From sequence record OQ990040: 64,000 bases of DNA. One strand, given 5' to 3'. Shown in pieces: positions 2,644 through 22,097 of the stretch. How positions within the stretch are numbered: the stretch's first letter is position 1; each line of letters begins with the position of its first letter. The DNA comes from Escherichia phage SUT_E520. Below the pieces are notes generated by a model. It searched no databases. It saw only the letters and a list, made by a program, of their open reading frames with translations, and was not told the origin of the DNA. The translations under genes and the position numbers were made by a program.

Positions 2644-3591
2644 TTACTTGTTACGCATATCCATGATCATTTGACCATCGTAGCCAGTACCTACCACAGT
2701 CTGAGGTACACCACCTTGATACTTCTGAGCACGGATCATTTCAACTTCCAGTTGTTTCCAACGAATCATTTCAGGAGTAATGGTACGTTGCAATGCGGCG
2801 TTAGCTTCAGCTTCTTTCTTAGCTGCGTACAGTTTAGCATCTGCGTCACGTTCATTAGCAATAGCTTGGTTGTTACGAGCTTCACGATCTGCTTCTGCTT
2901 GTTTAACTTTTTGCTGTGCTTCCTGTTCAACGCGAGCAAGTTCAGCTTTCGCAGCATTAACTTGCTCTTCACGAACTTTGGTATTCTGTACCTGTTCCAT
3001 GATTACTGGCGGCAAGGTAATATCCTGAAGGAATACCTGCTTAACTGTGTAACCATATGGGCGCGCATACTCTTCAACTTCCTGTTGAATTGCAGTTTGC
3101 AATTGAGCCTGAATTTTAGCATCAAATAAATCTTGTGCTTTAGGTACAGACTTACCAAACTCACGAATAGTAGACAGTAATTTTTCAGTTACATACTTGT
3201 CTAGTGCCTGATCCTGAGTACCTGCGTTAATACGGTTAATCGGTGCTTTAGAACCATCAAACTGCAACATAACAGTCAGGTCAACAGTGGATTTAAACTT
3301 ATCCTGGCTAGGAACCTGAAGTTTATCTAATTTTACAGCAATATCTTTTGTACTAAAAGTATCGAAAGATGCAAACGGGTTTACAAGATGGAAGCCCGGC
3401 AATACTGGATTAGGGTCTACTTTACCCAGGAATGTTTGGGTTTTAACCGTACCATCAGAAACAATAGTATATGAATTAAAAGCTAGGATTAAACCTGCTA
3501 AACCAACTACAGCACCAATACCCCAACGTTTAATAGTACGAATTACTTTCTGCTCAGAAGTCAGTTCTTTCATATTTTTAGTAGCAAACAT
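2644..3591 (-). CDS. SPFH/band-7 (prohibitin/HflKC-like) membrane protein
   Basis: N-terminal transmembrane segment (GIGAVVGLAGLILAF), band-7-like core, long charged coiled-coil tail (AKAELARVEQEAQQKVKQAEADREARNNQAI). Confidence 0.6.
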   Translation of the reverse strand: MFATKNMKELTSEQKVIRTIKRWGIGAVVGLAGLILAFNSYTIVSDGTVKTQTFLGKVDPNPVLPGFHLVNPFASFDTFSTKDIAVKLDKLQVPSQDKFKSTVDLTVMLQFDGSKAPINRINAGTQDQALDKYVTEKLLSTIREFGKSVPKAQDLFDAKIQAQLQTAIQQEVEEYARPYGYTVKQVFLQDITLPPVIMEQVQNTKVREEQVNAAKAELARVEQEAQQKVKQAEADREARNNQAIANERDADAKLYAAKKEAEANAALQRTITPEMIRWKQLEVEMIRAQKYQGGVPQTVVGTGYDGQMIMDMRNK

Positions 3592-3625: not shown

Positions 3626-3700
3626 TGGCCGAGGTGACAGGATTCGAACCTGCATAAAGGAATTTAGAAGACTCCTGCCTCTCCCTTAGACTACACCCCG
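3626..3700 (-). tRNA. tRNA-Arg (anticodon UCU); CCA encoded
   Basis: Reverse complement folds as acceptor CGGGGTG/CACCTCG, anticodon stem GGAGT/ATTCC with loop CTTCTAA, T arm GCAGG-TTCGAAT-CCTGT, 3' GCCA. Confidence 0.75.
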
Positions 3701-4202
3701 TTTAAGTATTTTTAAGAACTCTCGTAAAAACTCTTAAAAATACAGACGATACCGGGAGAGTCATAAGTCTCACTCATTAAGTATTTCAAGACAAAATACA
3801 GTAACGTCTATTATTTTCCAGTTTAAGTCAGGGTGACTTAGTGGTTATGTCCTGCGGTATATTGAGGACTCGGTTAGGCTTGGGGTCATGACTTCCCACC
3901 TTTTGCTGCTACTCAACAGGAGTTATCGCGAATTACCTGTGCTATTGTGCACCATTAGTGACATCTCTCATGTCAGCATTTCCCACTTTGTGGATAGCTT
4001 GAAAAACTACTCCGATATGGAGAAAGAACTTCACTATCCTAGAATACCTTCTAAAGTTCTTCTTTAGCCTGGACATAGTTAAATCGTAATAAAACTATTC
4101 AGCAGACTGGTTGGTTAGTCTGGAACCAACTACCGCGTGGTTTAGGCAGTGCGCAACTAACCTCGGAAGCTTTTATGTTAAAAGCATCAGTTATCCAGTT
4201 CT

Positions 4203-4274
4203 TACCGACCGTAGGATTCGAACCTACATCTTCCACCAGTTACGGCTTGATAATACCAATTATACTAGGACGGC
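4203..4274 (-). tRNA. tRNA-like element, possibly degenerate; anticodon not resolved (CGU is one possible reading)
   Basis: Perfect T arm GTAGG-TTCGAAT-CCTAC and 6/7 acceptor pairing, but irregular D and anticodon arms and no encoded CCA. Confidence 0.35.
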
Positions 4275-4497
4275 AGTGTTACTACATAAGTGATTTCCAC
4301 ACCCCACTATTTATAAATCAGAGAAGAGTTTAGGGGAGAGGTTTCAGACGCCTCATTTTACACGTTCTAGCCACTAACCGGGATTGCCGCCCCCTGTGTA
4401 CTAGTTTTACAACTAACCCACCGACTCTATTCAATGCGCTCCGGTTGGGATTCTGCACTCAGCGTAATCGGCTCGCTGTTCCCTAATTTATGAATAT

Positions 4498-4526
4498 ATT
4501 ATACAGAATTTATAAGCATTTAGCAA
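4498..4526 (-). promoter_or_regulatory. sigma70-type early promoter (TTGCTA-17-TATAAT)
   Basis: Minus-strand hexamers at 17-nt spacing; transcribes leftward into the tRNA/noncoding region. Confidence 0.65.
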
Positions 4527-4534
4527 ATGAATTT

Positions 4535-4969
4535 TTAGAAAAATTCACTAGCAATCAAAGCAGTTGTTTTACCGTCATAACGTCCGGGAAATTCTGCCTT
4601 AATAGTTTTCATTAATAGAGCTTTGGTAATACCTGGGTTTAATTTAACCAGTTCTGCAAAATACTCACGAATCTGAACCTCAGTCAGTTGACTTGGCTGA
4701 TACTCTTGCAGCATGGAATAAAGCAGTTGCTCATAGTCTACATCAGTAGGAACTTCCATACCAACTTTAATAGCGCGTTGTTTTGCATTTTCTAGAGCCT
4801 TAATCTGAGCTTTCAGATAGGCTACGAACTCGGTTCGAGTAACAATGTCTTTATCAATACGTTGCAGATCACCAATCATGGTCTGAAGATTAAGTGCCCG
4901 TTCCTTATCACCGTGAGTACGTGCTAGACTAAGTAGTCCACGAAGGGTCATTAGAATATTTTCACCCAT
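4535..4969 (-). CDS. hypothetical protein
   Basis: 144-aa ORF; its ATG overlaps the stop of the upstream small ORF (TAATG). Confidence 0.6.
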   Translation of the reverse strand: MGENILMTLRGLLSLARTHGDKERALNLQTMIGDLQRIDKDIVTRTEFVAYLKAQIKALENAKQRAIKVGMEVPTDVDYEQLLYSMLQEYQPSQLTEVQIREYFAELVKLNPGITKALLMKTIKAEFPGRYDGKTTALIASEFF

Positions 4970-5139
4970 TATTTCATCCCCAATGCTTGGTTAAAAGATT
5001 GTTCTGTCATAACTGCTGAGACTTTGGCGAAATCAAACTTTTTAGGGTTCGTAGTTATTTCAGCAACGTTAGAAGTTTTAACAGTTTTCGTAGTACGAAT
5101 ACCGCGAGTGTTAACACCAATAATTACAACTGATTTCAT
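4969..5139 (-). CDS. hypothetical small protein (56 aa, MKSVVIIGVNTRGIRTTK...), absent from the ORF track
   Basis: ATG 8 nt after RBS GAGAGGAAG directly downstream of the 5171..5199 promoter; stop overlaps the next start. Confidence 0.5.
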   Translation of the reverse strand: MKSVVIIGVNTRGIRTTKTVKTSNVAEITTNPKKFDFAKVSAVMTEQSFNQALGMK

Positions 5140-5207: not shown

Positions 5208-5657
5208 TTAAGTTTTAGTGACAACAGGTTTATAGAATGTATGTCCCTTAATCTTAGTTGTTTTCTTAAACTTCTTTGTCCAGTAAGGTTTATCTTTACC
5301 ACTATGGAAGTATAGTGCTCCATATGTAGGATCTTGTGGTAAATCAACGTAGTATATCACTCTAGCTAAATTCTTAGCGGTTTGCCAAGCCTCATCAGTT
5401 TTATCAACTTTTGGTCTCTTAGATACCCAAGAGAACTGGTTAGACTGATATACTACTTTACAGTAGGAATCTGGGAATTTACCGGAGTTTACACGGTTTT
5501 TAGTAACATGTGCAATCGCCGTCATTCCCTTTATGCCCTCACCACGACTTTCGAAATAGATATTTTTAGCAATGCAATCTATTTCTTTTGCATCGTGCGA
5601 TGCCTGACTACTAAAGCTGAAGGTAAGGGCAGCTACTAAAAGCAAAGCTGCCTTCAT
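5208..5657 (-). CDS. secreted cell-wall hydrolase, SleB/CwlJ family, with signal peptide
   Basis: ORF track start is TTG; the ATG at MKAALLLVAALTFSFSSQA follows RBS AGGAGT; motifs NIYFESRGE, AIAHVTKNRV, VVYQSNQFSW. Confidence 0.65.
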   Translation of the reverse strand: MKAALLLVAALTFSFSSQASHDAKEIDCIAKNIYFESRGEGIKGMTAIAHVTKNRVNSGKFPDSYCKVVYQSNQFSWVSKRPKVDKTDEAWQTAKNLARVIYYVDLPQDPTYGALYFHSGKDKPYWTKKFKKTTKIKGHTFYKPVVTKT

Positions 5658-5662
5658 TCTTT

Positions 5663-5980
5663 TTACTCCTGCCAATCATATTCAACACGATTGGGATTTT
5701 CTTTATACCCTAAGTCAAGCAAATCATTACGCATATTTTGCTTAGCTACTGGGTTCGAGGTTACTAGTACCACTTTCTTTGGTCTCTGCCCAAATTCTAA
5801 GAGTAAACGAAGAATTTGATAACCTTCCATACCATCTACAGCCAAGTCATTATCCATATAAACGAAATGGCCGGTGGTATCAGTTTTATTCAGAAACTCT
5901 ACAGCGGCTTCTGGGGTTCGAATGATAATGTCCATTCCGTGAAGATTACGCACATCATCAATCAAAATATGAAAAGTCAT
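5663..5980 (-). CDS. stand-alone CheY-like response-regulator receiver domain protein
   Basis: 105 aa; ILIDD acidic pocket, FVYMDNDLAVDGMEGYQILRLL matching the phospho-Asp region, VLVTS (Thr/Ser), LGYKENP (Lys); no output domain. Confidence 0.55.
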   Translation of the reverse strand: MTFHILIDDVRNLHGMDIIIRTPEAAVEFLNKTDTTGHFVYMDNDLAVDGMEGYQILRLLLEFGQRPKKVVLVTSNPVAKQNMRNDLLDLGYKENPNRVEYDWQE

Positions 5981-6010
5981 AATAGCCTCGTTTCATCAAT
6001 TTAAAAATAT

Positions 6011-6039
6011 ATTATACAGATAACTTAGTAACTTAGTAA
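6011..6039 (-). promoter_or_regulatory. sigma70-type early promoter (TTACTA-17-TATAAT)
   Basis: Minus-strand hexamers at 17-nt spacing upstream of the receiver gene. Confidence 0.5.
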
Positions 6040-6430
6040 ATTAGCAAATACATTTTTAAATTGTGAAACTAGTAAACCGATAAACAGCCTAGAGGCGCCA
6101 CAGGCCATATCTTATGAGCCATGTACCTTTGATCTAGGGTTTGAATCATCAACGAATACTTTGCATCTTTTAGCTTTAGAAGTTTAGAAGTTTGAGTTCT
6201 TTAAACTTTTCAGCTTTCATACTTAAATGTTGATCTTTGAAGTTGTGTCGGTAATATCAACGACGCTTTGTTCTTACGTGTCAGCTTAAAAGGCTGGTGT
6301 AATAAACATAATCTCCAATAGATTATACTTTATAGTATGGTCAGCGGTCTTATTTAACCCCGTATTTCAACCGCTGCTGCGAGGTAAGATGCTTGGGCTT
6401 TCGTCTACCGATTTACTAGCTTTTAAATTA

Positions 6431-7069
6431 TTACTCTACTTCAATGAAGGTAGAGGCGTTAGACTCGGACAGAACAAAGTCAACATTTGTTGCAAAGTCC
6501 TGGTATTCCTCGTCATGCTGCTTAATCAACTTCTCCAGTTCCAGCGGATCAATCAAGAATGGAGTATTCTTGAGTTCCAGCAGGTTGAGTTGCATTTTAA
6601 CTTCATCTTCGGAAGTTTTCTTATCACGGGTAGCCATGCTATCCTGCAAACGCTCATATTTAGCATCAAACTGTGCTTTCTGCGTATTAAACTTAACCGT
6701 AGCGGCATGGAACTGCTTACGCATGTTAGCCAGCAGTTGAGCTTTAAGCTCCATAGAACGCTTAGCTTCAATTGCTTCCGCAACAGTCATTTTACGAGAA
6801 CCGATCTCAACGATTGTTTCTGCATTGCTCTTAATCAGAGCAGATTTAATACGATCACGCTGAGACATCATATCCAGCAGAGACTGGAAATCAGTCTTAA
6901 TACGAGTAGACAGATCAGCTACTTCGATTGCAGCGCCAACTACAACCTGGTTTTTATCCTTACCTTCACCAACAGCGATCAGAAGCTGCTGTTCAGTAGC
7001 TTTACGGATTTTAGCTTCCAGAGATTTGATAGTTGCTAGAGCGCGAGTTTTAGAAATACGAGTAGTCAT
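6431..7069 (-). CDS. hypothetical protein, predicted alpha-helical
   Basis: 212-aa ORF behind RBS AAGGAAACAAATA. Confidence 0.6.
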   Translation of the reverse strand: MTTRISKTRALATIKSLEAKIRKATEQQLLIAVGEGKDKNQVVVGAAIEVADLSTRIKTDFQSLLDMMSQRDRIKSALIKSNAETIVEIGSRKMTVAEAIEAKRSMELKAQLLANMRKQFHAATVKFNTQKAQFDAKYERLQDSMATRDKKTSEDEVKMQLNLLELKNTPFLIDPLELEKLIKQHDEEYQDFATNVDFVLSESNASTFIEVE

Positions 7070-7375: not shown

Positions 7376-8077
7376 TCAAATTTTCATTTTTTCGATCATA
7401 GCTGCAACACAATAGCTTTCAACTAAGGCATCAAATGCAGGATCATGCTTAACCGGATAGATCCCATAACGAATGGTGTCCATCTTCTCCATTTTAGCTT
7501 TTGCCCAGCTAATACCTTCAGCCTCTAGATCTTTGTAACTATAATCAGCTTGCATCCAGAGATTACGAAGAGATCGAACATTGCCCAAATTCCAGAATTT
7601 CCACGGAACTACCTCTTCATTGGTTCCAGCATGGAATGTGTTTGCAGAGTAGATAGTCATATCAAACTCTGGGCCATTACCATAATACAAAGCATTTTCG
7701 CCTAGAGCCAACTCCATAATATTTTGAGCCATAGAGAAGGCAGCATAGTTTGAGCCAAATTTATTAGTGCAATGATGTTTACCATTTTGGAAGGCAATCA
7801 GTTTTGGATTACGTTCCTTCATAGCTTCCATAATGTGAATAGCAGACGGGCTATTTTTAGCTTGATCCATCCAGAATGCTAGAGTAGATGCTGTAACTTT
7901 AGCACCAGAATTAAGCTGATCTTGTACATCCAAAGTAACAAATACTAGATCAGGGTCTTTATCAATTCCATGCATAGCCACAAAAGCGAAAGAAGGCATT
8001 GCGATATGAGTAGTACCACAATCTCCTGGAGTTCCCAGAGATTCAATATCTAGCATACCAAATGGTTTTACTTTCAT
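7376..8077 (-). CDS. putative 3'-5' exonuclease (T4 DexA-like, DEDD fold)
   Basis: N-terminal MLDIESLGT resembles the DexA D-x-E motif (DFETMG); FWMDQAKNSPSA parallels the DexA WWKNQSPEA region. Confidence 0.45.
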   Translation of the reverse strand: MKVKPFGMLDIESLGTPGDCGTTHIAMPSFAFVAMHGIDKDPDLVFVTLDVQDQLNSGAKVTASTLAFWMDQAKNSPSAIHIMEAMKERNPKLIAFQNGKHHCTNKFGSNYAAFSMAQNIMELALGENALYYGNGPEFDMTIYSANTFHAGTNEEVVPWKFWNLGNVRSLRNLWMQADYSYKDLEAEGISWAKAKMEKMDTIRYGIYPVKHDPAFDALVESYCVAAMIEKMKI

Positions 8078-9254: not shown

Positions 9255-9704
9255 TTAATTTATTAACTGTAAGCTTCTTTTAATTTCAGACCTTACTTGC
9301 ATCAAAAGGACTCCTAAAGTATTATCCCCGATGCCTCGGCAAACACCCCAATATGTATCTCCCCAGGTATTTCCTTCGATCAAAGTTGCATTTTCTGTTG
9401 CTAACAGTTTATCTCTTAAATCAGGAATTGCAAACTTTAATCGTAAAAGCTCTAGCATTACATCATCTTTTACTTTATCCCAGTCAGAGCGTAGGGTTAA
9501 TTTACGTCCTCTACGTTTAGCAACTCCTGCATTTAGGGAGCGGAGTACATGAGCTACATCATCTTTTTGGTCGGATTTCATAGCCTGAAAAGCATGTTCT
9601 ACAGTATCAGCATGCCATATCTCATTTAGATATTCGAAAGTAATTGGTGATAAATAAAAGTTAGATAAGAAACTATAAGTACCTTTAAATTCAGTAATCT
9701 TCAT
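9255..9704 (-). CDS. NADAR (YbiA-like) domain protein, candidate N-glycosidase / ADP-ribosyl hydrolase
   Basis: FLSNF, W...EHAFQA, LIEGNTWGDTYWG, GDNTLGVLLMQVR match the YbiA/NADAR pattern. Confidence 0.75.
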   Translation of the reverse strand: MKITEFKGTYSFLSNFYLSPITFEYLNEIWHADTVEHAFQAMKSDQKDDVAHVLRSLNAGVAKRRGRKLTLRSDWDKVKDDVMLELLRLKFAIPDLRDKLLATENATLIEGNTWGDTYWGVCRGIGDNTLGVLLMQVRSEIKRSLQLIN

Positions 9705-10062: not shown

Positions 10063-10539
10063 TCACATCTCAGCCATTTCAGCTTCAGTAATAACTGTAT
10101 TACATAAGGCGTCTACAGCCTCATTACCACTAATACCAGAATGTCCTTTAACCTTAATAAAGGTAGGGTTAGTATTATGAAAGTTGATATACTGCTGTGT
10201 TAATTTAAATGCTTCCTGCCAAAGTTCTAGATTAAGAGGAACTTCACCATCTGCTTTCTTCCAGCCTTTCCTTTGCCAAGAAAACATCCAACTTTCCATG
10301 CCATTTTTGCAATAAGCAGAGTCAGTATAGATAGCAATTGGTCTATTATCTTTTTTAACAGACCAACGTAGGGCTTCTACGATAGCTGTGAGTTCCATCT
10401 CATTATTTGTAGTTTTAGGATTATAACCAGATTTAGAACCTAAACGATCGTCGTTATCATCATAGACAATAAAACCCCAAGCACCTGGACCTGGATTAGA
10501 CTTACAAGCACCATCTGTGTAAATGTGGAAAACCGACAT
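10063..10539 (-). CDS. rnhA: ribonuclease HI
   Basis: IYTDGAC, ELTA, IYTDS, VKGHSGISGNEAVD motifs; start set at MSVFHIYTDG, giving ATGA overlap with the upstream gene. Confidence 0.8.
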   Translation of the reverse strand: MSVFHIYTDGACKSNPGPGAWGFIVYDDNDDRLGSKSGYNPKTTNNEMELTAIVEALRWSVKKDNRPIAIYTDSAYCKNGMESWMFSWQRKGWKKADGEVPLNLELWQEAFKLTQQYINFHNTNPTFIKVKGHSGISGNEAVDALCNTVITEAEMAEM

Positions 10540-10820
10540 TATACCTCCCAACTAATTTTAAGACCCATGTCTACAAAGGCGGCTTCTCGGTAGTATTGAG
10601 AGAGATGATACCCCTTATCCGATAAGGTTTTTAGTACCGATTTAGCGGCTCCTGGCATTTCTCTAGGATTATATAGCCACCTAGCGTAAGGATTATCTCG
10701 AATAATTACTTCTGTATTTCCAGACTTAGCAGCTTCTACAATCTTTTCTTCTATAAACTTTAGAAAAGCGGGTACTTCTGTTAATCCTGCAAGTTCTTGG
10801 GCTTCTTTGGCTGAAATCAT
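10539..10820 (-). CDS. hypothetical protein
   Basis: 93-aa ORF translationally coupled to its neighbours. Confidence 0.55.
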   Translation of the reverse strand: MISAKEAQELAGLTEVPAFLKFIEEKIVEAAKSGNTEVIIRDNPYARWLYNPREMPGAAKSVLKTLSDKGYHLSQYYREAAFVDMGLKISWEV

Positions 10821-20606: not shown

Positions 20607-20796
20607 GGGTTTAAACGCCGCTTTGGAAAACGCATTAATGCAGCACTGGGAAACTGGCTATAAGGATGGTGTTGAATCCTGCGCTACTATGCTAGAAGTT
20701 ATTGCTAATACCTTAATGGAGAAAGGCAATAAAGAATTAGCTGAGCTATTAGACAGTATTGGGCAAAACTTCAGAGAACAGGTGAAAAATGCGTAG
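20575..20796 (+). CDS. hypothetical protein
   Basis: 73-aa ORF behind RBS GAGGAG. Confidence 0.5.
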   Translation: MAFSKPMLPDKGLNAALENALMQHWETGYKDGVESCATMLEVIANTLMEKGNKELAELLDSIGQNFREQVKNA

Positions 20797-21604
20797 ATTA
20801 ATTGTTATTAGCGGTGCAGGTTTGAGTGTTGAAAGTGGTGTACGAGCTTTTCGTACTGATACTGCTAGTGGTAAAGCATTGTGGGATGATTATGATCTAG
20901 AAGAAGTATGTAATATTCATGCCTTTCGTGGTAATTTTTATCATAAAACCCATATGTTTTACAACAAGCGTCGTGAAGAGCTAAAAACTGTTGAACCCAA
21001 TCTTGCGCATTTGCGTATCGGTGAATGGTATAAACAATATCCAGGTCAAGTAGTAAACTTGACTACCAACGTTGATGACCTTATTGAGCGTTCTGGCGTT
21101 CCACATAATGACATTCTACACATTCATGGATATTTAAAAGAGGTTGTTGTAGCTGATAGCTACAATAGTAGCAATAAACGGATTATTGATGTAGGATACA
21201 ATTCTATTGATCCAGATGATTATAAATGGGTTAAACCTAATGTAATCTTCTTTGGAGAGCATGCTCCAGCATATGCGGAGATGTACAATGTTTTTGATGG
21301 TATTACCAGTCAAGATATGATCATTGTGGTTGGTTGCTCTAACCAAGTAATTAACTTCTACTGGGAATTATTTCCTGTTCTTAATTTGACTGCTGCCAAG
21401 CTAATGGTTGTTAACTACTATGATAGTGCCCTAGCGGCGGAACCGAGCTATCAAGGTATGACTCGTAGTGAGATGTACCAGCTGGAAGAACGCGGTATCC
21501 CTTACTGGGGTAAAGGTGCGGTAGATGCTTTCAGTGATCCTGATTTTATTGCTCGTGTAGAAGCTCATTTAGGGGGTAGACCTTATGTGTCAGGAAATAA
21601 GTAA
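20789..21604 (+). CDS. Sir2-like (sirtuin-family) NAD-binding protein without Zn-ribbon
   Basis: GAGLSVESGVRAFR, TTNVDDLIERSG and catalytic-His HIHGY motifs; no CxxC pairs in the expected region. Confidence 0.65.
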   Translation: MRRLIVISGAGLSVESGVRAFRTDTASGKALWDDYDLEEVCNIHAFRGNFYHKTHMFYNKRREELKTVEPNLAHLRIGEWYKQYPGQVVNLTTNVDDLIERSGVPHNDILHIHGYLKEVVVADSYNSSNKRIIDVGYNSIDPDDYKWVKPNVIFFGEHAPAYAEMYNVFDGITSQDMIIVVGCSNQVINFYWELFPVLNLTAAKLMVVNYYDSALAAEPSYQGMTRSEMYQLEERGIPYWGKGAVDAFSDPDFIARVEAHLGGRPYVSGNK

Positions 21605-22097
21605 TACTCCAATTATTTTTCTAGACATTGATGGGGTGCTCAATTCGAGCATCTCCCACTATCATGCACCTGATGATGAAAAGATTTTCTTTGGAAGTGA
21701 TTGGGTTTTCAAACCGCTTCTCAAGGCTTTTCAGGACTTTATTCGTCCTTCTCCAATAATGATTGTTGGAGTATCATCTTGGTTCTCTGTCAGAAATGAG
21801 ATGGAGAACGTTCAGATTATGACCGGATTAGGCCTTATCGATCGTTTTCTTGGTACAACGGATTTTACTGGTGGTGGATTATCTAGGGGTAATTCTGTTC
21901 TTCGCTTCGTTGAAAAGCATAAGCTCAAACATTGGTGTGTGCTTGATGATGCGGGTGCTATGATGTATCAGTATCCAACGGTTATAGTCAACGGTAGGAC
22001 TGGTATAAATCTTCAAGATTTAAAAGCTGTTAGCTATATGCTAGAATTTAGCCCAGATCTTGAAATGTGTAAATCCTTACAACAATTTAAGGTGTAA
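21585..22097 (+). CDS. HAD-superfamily phosphatase (possible 5'-deoxyribonucleotidase)
   Basis: HAD motif I IIFLDIDGVLN near the N-terminus; overlaps the Sir2-like stop. Confidence 0.45.
   Translation: MCQEISNTPIIFLDIDGVLNSSISHYHAPDDEKIFFGSDWVFKPLLKAFQDFIRPSPIMIVGVSSWFSVRNEMENVQIMTGLGLIDRFLGTTDFTGGGLSRGNSVLRFVEKHKLKHWCVLDDAGAMMYQYPTVIVNGRTGINLQDLKAVSYMLEFSPDLEMCKSLQQFKV

Follow-up and report, generated by a model that had tools for sequence, protein, structure and literature searches.

The window analysed here is a 64,000-nucleotide stretch of Escherichia phage SUT_E520 (record OQ990040), and it represents a Tequintavirus (T5-like) genome. The region between positions 4500 and 7100 is 100% identical to Escherichia phages SUT_E1520 and SUT_E420, and 98-99.7% identical to many further T5-like phages (446 records). 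On its minus strand this region carries a short gene whose product, a protein of the cREC family, is the subject of this work. The gene and its immediate surroundings are as follows:

5663..5980, minus strand: gene of the cREC protein, 105 aa, homologue of T5.084; ATG start, TAA stop (PF20274, PHROG 1479, AlphaFold2)
5986..5989, minus strand: Shine-Dalgarno-like GAGG, 5 nt upstream of the cREC ATG (read from the sequence)
6011..6040, minus strand: sigma-70 promoter-like site TTTACT-18 nt-TATAAT, upstream of the cREC gene (consensus scan, 10/12 matches)
5208..5657, minus strand: gene of a SleB-like cell-wall hydrolase with a signal peptide (PF07486, Hydrolase_2, E=3.8e-25)

The 105-aa reading frame that an earlier note on this DNA had described at 5663-5980 is present, on the minus strand and from ATG to TAA, with the segment YMDNDLAVDGMEGYQIL within it. 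It is a conserved gene, and a chance reading frame is excluded, because its product is matched in 493 phage records (tblastn) and because profile searches collected 445 clusters of homologues at 50% identity (E<=0.001, in a library of 1.84 billion representatives) and 1940 clusters at 90% identity (word-indexed profile search). The 493 records are mostly Salmonella and Escherichia T5-like phages, and about 50 of them are KVP40-like Vibrio myoviruses with approximately 37% identity. In the T5 reference genome the counterpart at the equivalent position is T5.084, which is labelled 'hypothetical protein'.

For the strong early promoter reported in the same note, a candidate is the TTTACT-18-TATAAT site read from 6040 to 6011, and in the T5 reference the corresponding position, directly upstream of T5.084, is also annotated as a promoter; therefore, early expression of the cREC gene is plausible. 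In the region as a whole, promoter-like sites are not more frequent than expected by chance (5 found, against a mean of 8.9 in shuffled sequence). The secreted SleB-like neighbour was also correctly identified, given the Hydrolase_2 match and the Sec-type N-terminus MKAALLLVAALTFSFSSQA. A gap of 5 nt separates the cREC stop codon from its ATG, and for this reason the two genes are probably co-transcribed. A functional tie between them was considered and rejected, because they are not neighbours in every phage: about 3 kb separate the cREC gene from the hydrolase gene in Pectobacterium phage My1, and the annotation of 12 kb around the cREC homologue in the KVP40-like phage phi-pp2 contains no hydrolase.

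Family membership and predicted fold

The gene falls into a phage family that had been described before, cREC. Its product matches the Pfam profile cREC_REC (PF20274) with E=3.8e-15 and 56.8 bits (cut-off 27), residues 4-87 being aligned with profile positions 2-86, that is, 85 of the 88 positions of the profile; it also belongs to PHROG 1479 (phrog_1479, function unknown; E=3.8e-30). The domain was defined by Iyer, Aravind and colleagues (PMC7824862, 2021; PMC9503650, 2022), who regarded it as a receiver that has diverged and that never occurs with histidine kinases, and reported its linkage to genes that process NAD and ADP-ribose (Nudix, sirtuin, Macro, NADAR) and to RNA ligases. They predicted that cyclic phosphates are resolved by this domain, either the 2',3' kind found on RNA or the 1''-2'' kind of ADP-ribose, and called the domain experimentally uncharacterised (PMC7824862; PMC9503650). 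A literature search on PF20274, T5.084 and cREC found nothing experimental beyond these two computational papers. The domain is thus already known: it was defined in 2021, it has a Pfam entry, and its name already stands on near-identical T5-like proteins, some of which appear in UniRef/NCBI as 'cyclic-phosphate processing receiver domain-containing protein'.

The members of the family are nearly all stand-alone proteins of approximately 100 aa, and the close homologues found in a collection of 5.8 billion proteins all carry PF20274 alone. Only one of the ten longer homologues that were scanned has a second clear domain, an HNH endonuclease. Such HNH-cREC fusions (P0033, Kenya-K44) were considered as a functional architecture and judged likely homing-endonuclease insertions; in T5-like phages, the fusion is probably an insertion of this kind. 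Scans of the cREC protein gave no match to any PADLOC defence-system model and none in NCBIfam. The search with the Response_reg profile (PF00072), which had been proposed as a check of a CheY-like identity, did not produce a significant match (12.5 bits against a cut-off of 30.2, E=0.17).

The AlphaFold2 model of the cREC protein, for which 18 relatives were used, has a pLDDT of 91.3 and a pTM of 0.85, and that of a relative with 37% identity (P0040) reaches a pLDDT of 96.6. In both models, a 10-residue loop joins beta1 to beta2, beta3 and beta4 are each preceded by a helix, and a third helix after beta4 leads to a short C-terminal beta element. Accordingly, there are three helices only; beta1 leads to beta2 without one, the last strand is not followed by one, and in an alignment of 140 representatives the spacing of beta1 and beta2 is 8-10 residues family-wide. 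Foldseek supports a receiver-like fold, at a distance (best E=4.7e-4, TM 0.5-0.59), while a search of PDB sequences with the family profile retrieved no solved relative (best E=0.14, resolvases). As modelled, the cREC protein is a reduced, Rossmannoid version of the receiver fold that lacks alpha1 and alpha5, the helices that in CheY cover one face of the sheet. The notion of a single-domain phage protein with a receiver fold and no output domain is therefore borne out by the models, by Foldseek and by the presence of PF20274 alone; a complete CheY-type (beta-alpha)5 fold was not found, since alpha1 and alpha5 are absent from both models.

Conserved residues and the putative active site

The conservation of individual positions was evaluated in the alignment of 140 family representatives. 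The segments that concentrate the invariant residues are encoded as follows:

5954..5959, minus strand: codons of D8-D9, acidic pair at the end of beta1, equivalent to CheY D12/D13 (99% conserved)
5918..5950, minus strand: codons of R11 to R21, short connection of beta1 and beta2 that replaces alpha1 (R11 95%, D17 87%, R21 97%; AlphaFold2 models)
5846..5854, minus strand: codons of D43-N44-D45, D-x-D motif at the end of beta3 (D43 100%, D45 99%; position 44 is H or N)
5753..5761, minus strand: codons of T74-S75-N76, end of beta4 (T/S74 99%, N76 98%)

Further conserved positions are G47 (94%), G53 (100%), P67 (93%) and Y92 (90%), and R21 is located at the C-terminal end of beta2, where it forms part of the pocket of invariant residues. 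The family profile was aligned with CheY, Spo0F, PhoB and NtrC by means of hhalign. On CheY, D43 falls on D57, G53 on G65 and T74 on T87; in the same register D45 occupies the D+2 position and N76 the T+2 position. CheY K109 falls on N95, in a column where only 13% of the family has lysine.

These data separate what holds from what does not in the description of the protein as a receiver with the usual hallmarks. The acidic pocket, the phospho-acceptor-like aspartate and the Thr/Ser position are all found, as D8-D9, D43 and T74/S75, and they are nearly invariant throughout the family; the supposedly conserved lysine is not, given that the column of N95 is unconserved. Thus, three of the four hallmarks of receivers are present in the cREC protein and the lysine is the missing one. 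The absence of the Asp, Thr and Lys positions had been named as the result that would speak against a receiver: the aspartate and the threonine are there, and the lysine is not.

Residues R11, R21, D45 (D+2) and N76 (T+2) appear as additions to the receiver set, of the sort typical of a dedicated active site. In receivers, the D+2 and T+2 positions tune the rate of acyl-phosphate hydrolysis, and in HAD phosphatases the aspartate two residues past the nucleophile is the general acid/base. For these two reasons, an invariant D-x-D on a receiver scaffold is more suggestive of an enzyme that turns over than of a switch.

In comparison with CheY and Spo0F (PF00072), the cREC protein is below the HMM threshold, is approximately 20 residues shorter and has neither alpha1, alpha5 and the beta5 lysine nor a kinase partner, whereas it possesses invariant Arg11 and Arg21, Asp at D+2 and Asn at T+2. 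Another likeness may be drawn, on textbook grounds, to HAD phosphatases such as the phosphatase domain of T4 polynucleotide kinase-phosphatase and HAD_SAK_2: a D-x-D motif, a Thr/Ser, a basic residue, further carboxylates and a Rossmann-like alpha/beta architecture. With the HAD phosphatases of RNA repair it would also share its predicted task, the healing of RNA 3' ends. Unlike the HAD superfamily, it has no DxDx(T/V) motif directly after the first strand and no squiggle/flap. The 2H phosphoesterases of the LigT/CPDase type have the same predicted job, the opening of 2',3'- or 1''-2''-cyclic phosphates, and occur in the same phage gene networks (PMC9503650), but their fold is unrelated and their chemistry is based on histidine; furthermore, the 2H activity is experimentally established, while that of cREC is predicted.

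Genomic context in the window and in relatives

The cREC gene sits at the edge of the T5-type tRNA cluster. In the T5 reference this cluster extends from 28.0 to 40.8 kb and T5.084 is found at 42.7 kb. The relevant features of the window are:

2-90: tRNA-Ser
3626-3700: tRNA-Arg, 2 kb from the cREC gene
4203-4274: tRNA-like element (Rfam only), 1.4 kb from the cREC gene
4535-4969, minus strand: YqeY-like protein gene
4969-5139, minus strand: DUF7616 gene
7376-8077, minus strand: gene with an Rv2179c-like 3'-5' exoribonuclease domain, 1.4 kb from the cREC gene
9255-9704, minus strand: NADAR gene (E=7e-22), 3.3 kb from the cREC gene
10063-10551, minus strand: RNase H gene
20789-21601, opposite strand to the cREC gene: SIR2 gene (E=4e-24), about 15 kb away
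21585-22094, opposite strand to the cREC gene: HAD_SAK_2 (PF18143) 'Swiss-army-knife' RNA-repair phosphatase gene (E=9e-20), overlapping SIR2

The sirtuin and HAD pair is the 'SP15-type' RNA-repair neighbourhood, so called after Escherichia phage SP15 (PMC9503650), which is itself a Tequintavirus. The phage therefore carries several members of the predicted network for RNA ends and NAD derivatives, dispersed and not gathered in one operon. With the typical members of cREC_REC (PF20274) the gene has in common its conserved aspartates, its phage origin, its stand-alone state and a genome that also contains sirtuin, NADAR and RNA-repair HAD genes. No structural difference from them was observed; what differs is the absence of RNA ligase, Nudix and sirtuin genes, the usual operonic partners, from the adjacent positions, the nearest features of the T5-like locus being tRNA genes, the YqeY-like gene, the SleB-like hydrolase and the exoribonuclease-like gene. 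Neither an RNA ligase nor a polynucleotide kinase is among the annotated features of the T5 reference between 9 and 50 kb, and no kinase was found in the scanned part of the window. The NADAR gene is missing from T5 itself and is variable among T5-like phages.

The context of relatives was examined in 33 non-redundant cREC loci taken from viral contigs, annotated phages, metagenome look-ups and genome bins. Profile searches of the viral contigs with three narrow alignments yielded 19, 4 and 26 loci, many of them redundant, and a scan of a genome collection yielded 8 loci, all of them in metagenome-assembled bins. A tRNA gene was found within 5 kb in 10 of the 33 loci, as opposed to 5 of 48 control clusters of thymidylate synthase (odds ratio 3.7, one-sided Fisher p=0.025; p=0.007 in the first batch alone). 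The control consisted of alignment-based ThyA loci from the same collection, a control built on a single ThyA having been dropped because it retrieved almost only T5-like phages. In several loci the tRNA is very close to the cREC gene (58 bp in L005, 35 bp in L026, 45 bp in L114 and 0.5 kb in L012), and in KVP40-like phages, including phi-pp2, the homologue is at or in a tRNA array, 2 kb from a tRNA; the remaining 23 of the 33 loci have no tRNA within 5 kb. The support for a link between cREC and tRNA arrays is modest: the samples are small, thymidylate synthase was the single control family, and the co-location of accessory genes could by itself produce such a pattern; the link is a testable lead and not a result.

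An RNA ligase is found one gene away from cREC in 2 of the 33 loci, on the same strand in both: RtcB (E=6e-109) in L022, where tRNA genes are also located 1.6 kb upstream, and an Rnl1-like ligase (E=7e-13) in L015. A Pfam census of the 285 genes within 5 kb of 26 cREC loci revealed no dominant partner family. The matches listed include Metallophos three times, HD, SIR2 and NYN twice each, and RtcB and the Thoeris inhibitor Tad3 once each, and most neighbours, in the census as well as in three contigs that were inspected, are small ORFs without a known family. Among the families listed for these 285 genes (the 25 most frequent per batch) there is no kinase family, and an obligate linkage to NAD systems was not reproduced among them. 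Taken together, the context of the relatives fits the published RNA-repair reading, with a linkage that is far from universal.

Predicted function and alternative readings

The most likely function of the cREC protein, judging from its conserved residues, is that of an aspartate-based phosphoesterase. As to its substrate, the genomic context leads us to propose that it is a receiver-derived enzyme acting on RNA ends, above all those of tRNAs, a reading to which we assign a probability of roughly 0.4. In the proposed mechanism, the four acidic residues would bind a divalent metal and the phosphate of the substrate, as occurs in receivers and HAD phosphatases, and D43 would attack the phosphorus to form a short-lived acyl-phosphate. 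From its position in the sequence, D45 (D+2) may work as the general acid/base, like the second aspartate of the HAD DxDxT motif, while T74, N76 and, again by position, R11/R21 would stabilise the transition state, the two arginines substituting for the missing lysine. Water would then release the phosphate from D43. The site has been called metal-independent by the defining papers (PMC7824862; PMC9503650), and it is in the present analysis that we infer a metal dependence. The presumed substrates are RNA or tRNA ends with a 2',3'-cyclic phosphate or a 2'/3'-phosphate, such as those left by the metal-independent cleavage of host nucleases. Made early in infection, the protein would help, together with the tRNA set of the phage and the dispersed SIR2, HAD_SAK and NADAR proteins, to keep the tRNA pool usable.

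The same catalytic domain could have a soluble nucleotide as its substrate: ADP-ribose 1''-2'' cyclic phosphate (a by-product of NAD-dependent 2'-phosphate removal), isomers of cyclic ADP-ribose or the 2',3'-cyclic nucleotides of immune signalling, so that it would clear a by-product or quench signals of the host. A soluble substrate is the second of the two published predictions, which were accompanied by the linkage to Nudix, sirtuin, Macro and NADAR genes (PMC7824862; PMC9503650), and it agrees with the NADAR gene at 3.3 kb, with the SIR2 gene in the same window, and with the two SIR2 and one Tad3 genes among the neighbours of relatives. However, neither Nudix nor Macro is among the neighbour families listed, SIR2 neighbours are rare (2 of the 285 genes) and NADAR varies among T5-like phages, while the adjacency of tRNA and RNA-ligase genes favours RNA; we regard a soluble substrate as the main alternative, though rather unlikely. 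That the domain is not catalytic at all, and that it acts as a sponge or inhibitor whose pocket binds a host protein or a nucleotide and turns nothing over, seems highly improbable. Its small size, its early and stand-alone character and its resemblance to known phage sponges would suit such a role, and the face of the sheet left without its two helices might serve for interaction or oligomerisation, but four invariant carboxylates with Thr, Asn and Arg, maintained across proteins that are about 30% identical, look catalytic, and a pocket for a negatively charged nucleotide is normally less acidic.

The earlier note had favoured a different role, that of a sink or decoy for the phosphoryl groups of host two-component or chemotaxis signalling, and a phosphorelay-type defence such as Detocs can be added as a possible source. 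This proposal is compatible with the receiver fold and with the presence of DD, D and T; an aspartate at D+2 could speed up dephosphorylation, as a sink would require. There is also a precedent in DtcB of Detocs, a stand-alone protein with a receiver fold that has been proposed to buffer or absorb phosphoryl groups (bioRxiv 10.1101/2023.01.24.525353), but DtcB is encoded in an operon with the kinase DtcA, the proposed phosphate source, whereas the cREC protein has no PADLOC match; moreover, T5 itself, with its T5.084 gene, does not escape restriction by Detocs (bioRxiv 10.1101/2023.01.24.525353). The family is PF20274 and distinct from PF00072, whose profile is not significantly matched, and its association with kinases has reportedly never been found (PMC7824862). 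The protein is also devoid of the lysine and of the kinase-docking alpha1 and alpha5. Structures of kinase/receiver complexes show that histidine kinases and Hpt proteins dock on receivers through alpha1 and the beta5-alpha5 region. Finally, cREC occurs in phages of many hosts and its active site is constant, while a kinase partner would predict a variable specificity surface. The sink or decoy proposal is consequently unsupported and very improbable.

Returning to the action on RNA ends, a more specific version can be formulated for T5. The tRNAs of this phage are known tools of counter-defence (PMC11464382), and the T5 cREC protein may be a new RNA end-healing enzyme, in which the receiver scaffold has become a HAD-like aspartyl phosphoesterase that frees tRNAs, once host anticodon nucleases have cut them, of their 2',3'-cyclic or terminal phosphates. 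It would then be the enzymatic arm of a tRNA counter-defence island formed with the phage tRNAs, SIR2 and HAD_SAK. We consider this full version unlikely as it stands, and offer it as a tentative proposal.

The cREC family is widespread among phages, and T5 offers a tractable model for finding its function. If the protein does heal the ends of tRNA and other RNAs, or destroys NAD-derived signals, T5-like phages, which are common candidates for therapy, would have an added counter-defence activity, and the family would be an example of a signalling fold turned enzyme. If the RNA end-healing reading in particular is true, it would provide the first biochemical function for a family of approximately 1,900 clusters, and it would do so in a classical model phage.

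Flanks of the cREC gene

The cREC gene lies between a predicted hydrolase gene and a long spacer, and further genes follow beyond the latter:

5208-5657, minus strand: SleB-like cell-wall hydrolase gene (PF07486)
5981-6430: spacer of 450 nt, 5' of the cREC gene
6431-7069, minus strand: gene labelled 'tail fiber protein' (PHROG 1491 and many records)
7376-8077, minus strand: gene with an Rv2179c-like 3'-5' exoribonuclease domain (E=5e-8; PHROG 255)

The hydrolase carries a Sec-type signal peptide (MKAALLLVAALTFSFSSQA), and its gene is located in the early region, apart from the lysis cassette of T5 (T5.040/T5.041). The spacer contains no open reading frame longer than about 17 codons; it holds short direct repeats (ACTTCTAA and TTACTAAGT, each present twice) as well as a second TATAAT-like box, and the T5 annotation of this upstream spacer covers its proximal 75 nt only, as a promoter. 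The label of the gene at 6431-7069 is doubtful because the gene sits among early genes; Pfam finds no domain in its product. The names given in public records to the gene at 7376-8077 also differ, and include 'metallopeptidase', 'exonuclease' and 'recombination-related exonuclease'.

Variants of the cREC protein and neighbouring RNA ligases

In some T5-like relatives the cREC domain is part of an in-frame fusion of 273 aa with an HNH endonuclease (relative protein P0033; Salmonella phage Kenya-K44, 38582-38878), which is probably the result of a homing-endonuclease insertion beside the cREC gene. The family alignment also delineates a subgroup (loci L018, L021, L024-L026, L032-L034, L115 and L116) whose proteins have a '...KLY' tail, stop directly past helix 4 and, unlike the T5 type, do not have the C-terminal beta element. 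According to rough tallies made by eye, a tRNA is found nearby in one of about nine '...KLY' loci, whereas this is the case for about 9 of 23 T5-type loci.

An RNA ligase is encoded one gene away from the cREC gene in two uncultivated phage contigs:

L022, 1065-4838: RtcB
L015, 10001-13010: Rnl1-like ligase

The first of these loci has tRNA genes 1.6 kb upstream, and in the second the ligase gene is followed by two ORFs whose sequences show motifs of calcineurin-like phosphoesterases, identified by regular-expression match only.

Other genes and RNA elements of the window

Several additional features were recognised:

2644-3591, minus strand: gene of the SPFH/Band 7 family (E=2e-17)
4203-4274, minus strand: tRNA-like element, inside about 3701-4420 (Rfam, 35.5 bits, E=1.8e-4)
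9255-9704, minus strand: NADAR-domain gene (PF08719, E=7e-22)
20789-21601, plus strand: SIR2-family gene (family match, E=4e-24)
21585-22094, plus strand: HAD_SAK_2 'Swiss-army-knife' RNA-repair phosphatase gene (family match, E=9e-20)

The SPFH/Band 7 gene, which is flanked by tRNA genes, corresponds to T5.080, a 'lipoprotein' in the T5 reference. The tRNA-like element was matched by Rfam only, with no call from ARAGORN. In T5_ev212, another T5-like phage, it is entered as a tRNA without a name, and the T5 reference labels the region that holds it 'RNAX, stable RNA with unknown functions'.

The SIR2 and HAD_SAK_2 genes overlap by 17 nt and are followed by two DUF7415 genes; they form the same sirtuin and HAD pair that is known from Tequintavirus SP15 (PMC9503650). 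The NADAR gene was found in the window and in T5_ev212, but the T5 reference annotates no equivalent in the T5.089-T5.090 interval; among T5-like phages it is therefore an accessory gene of variable presence.
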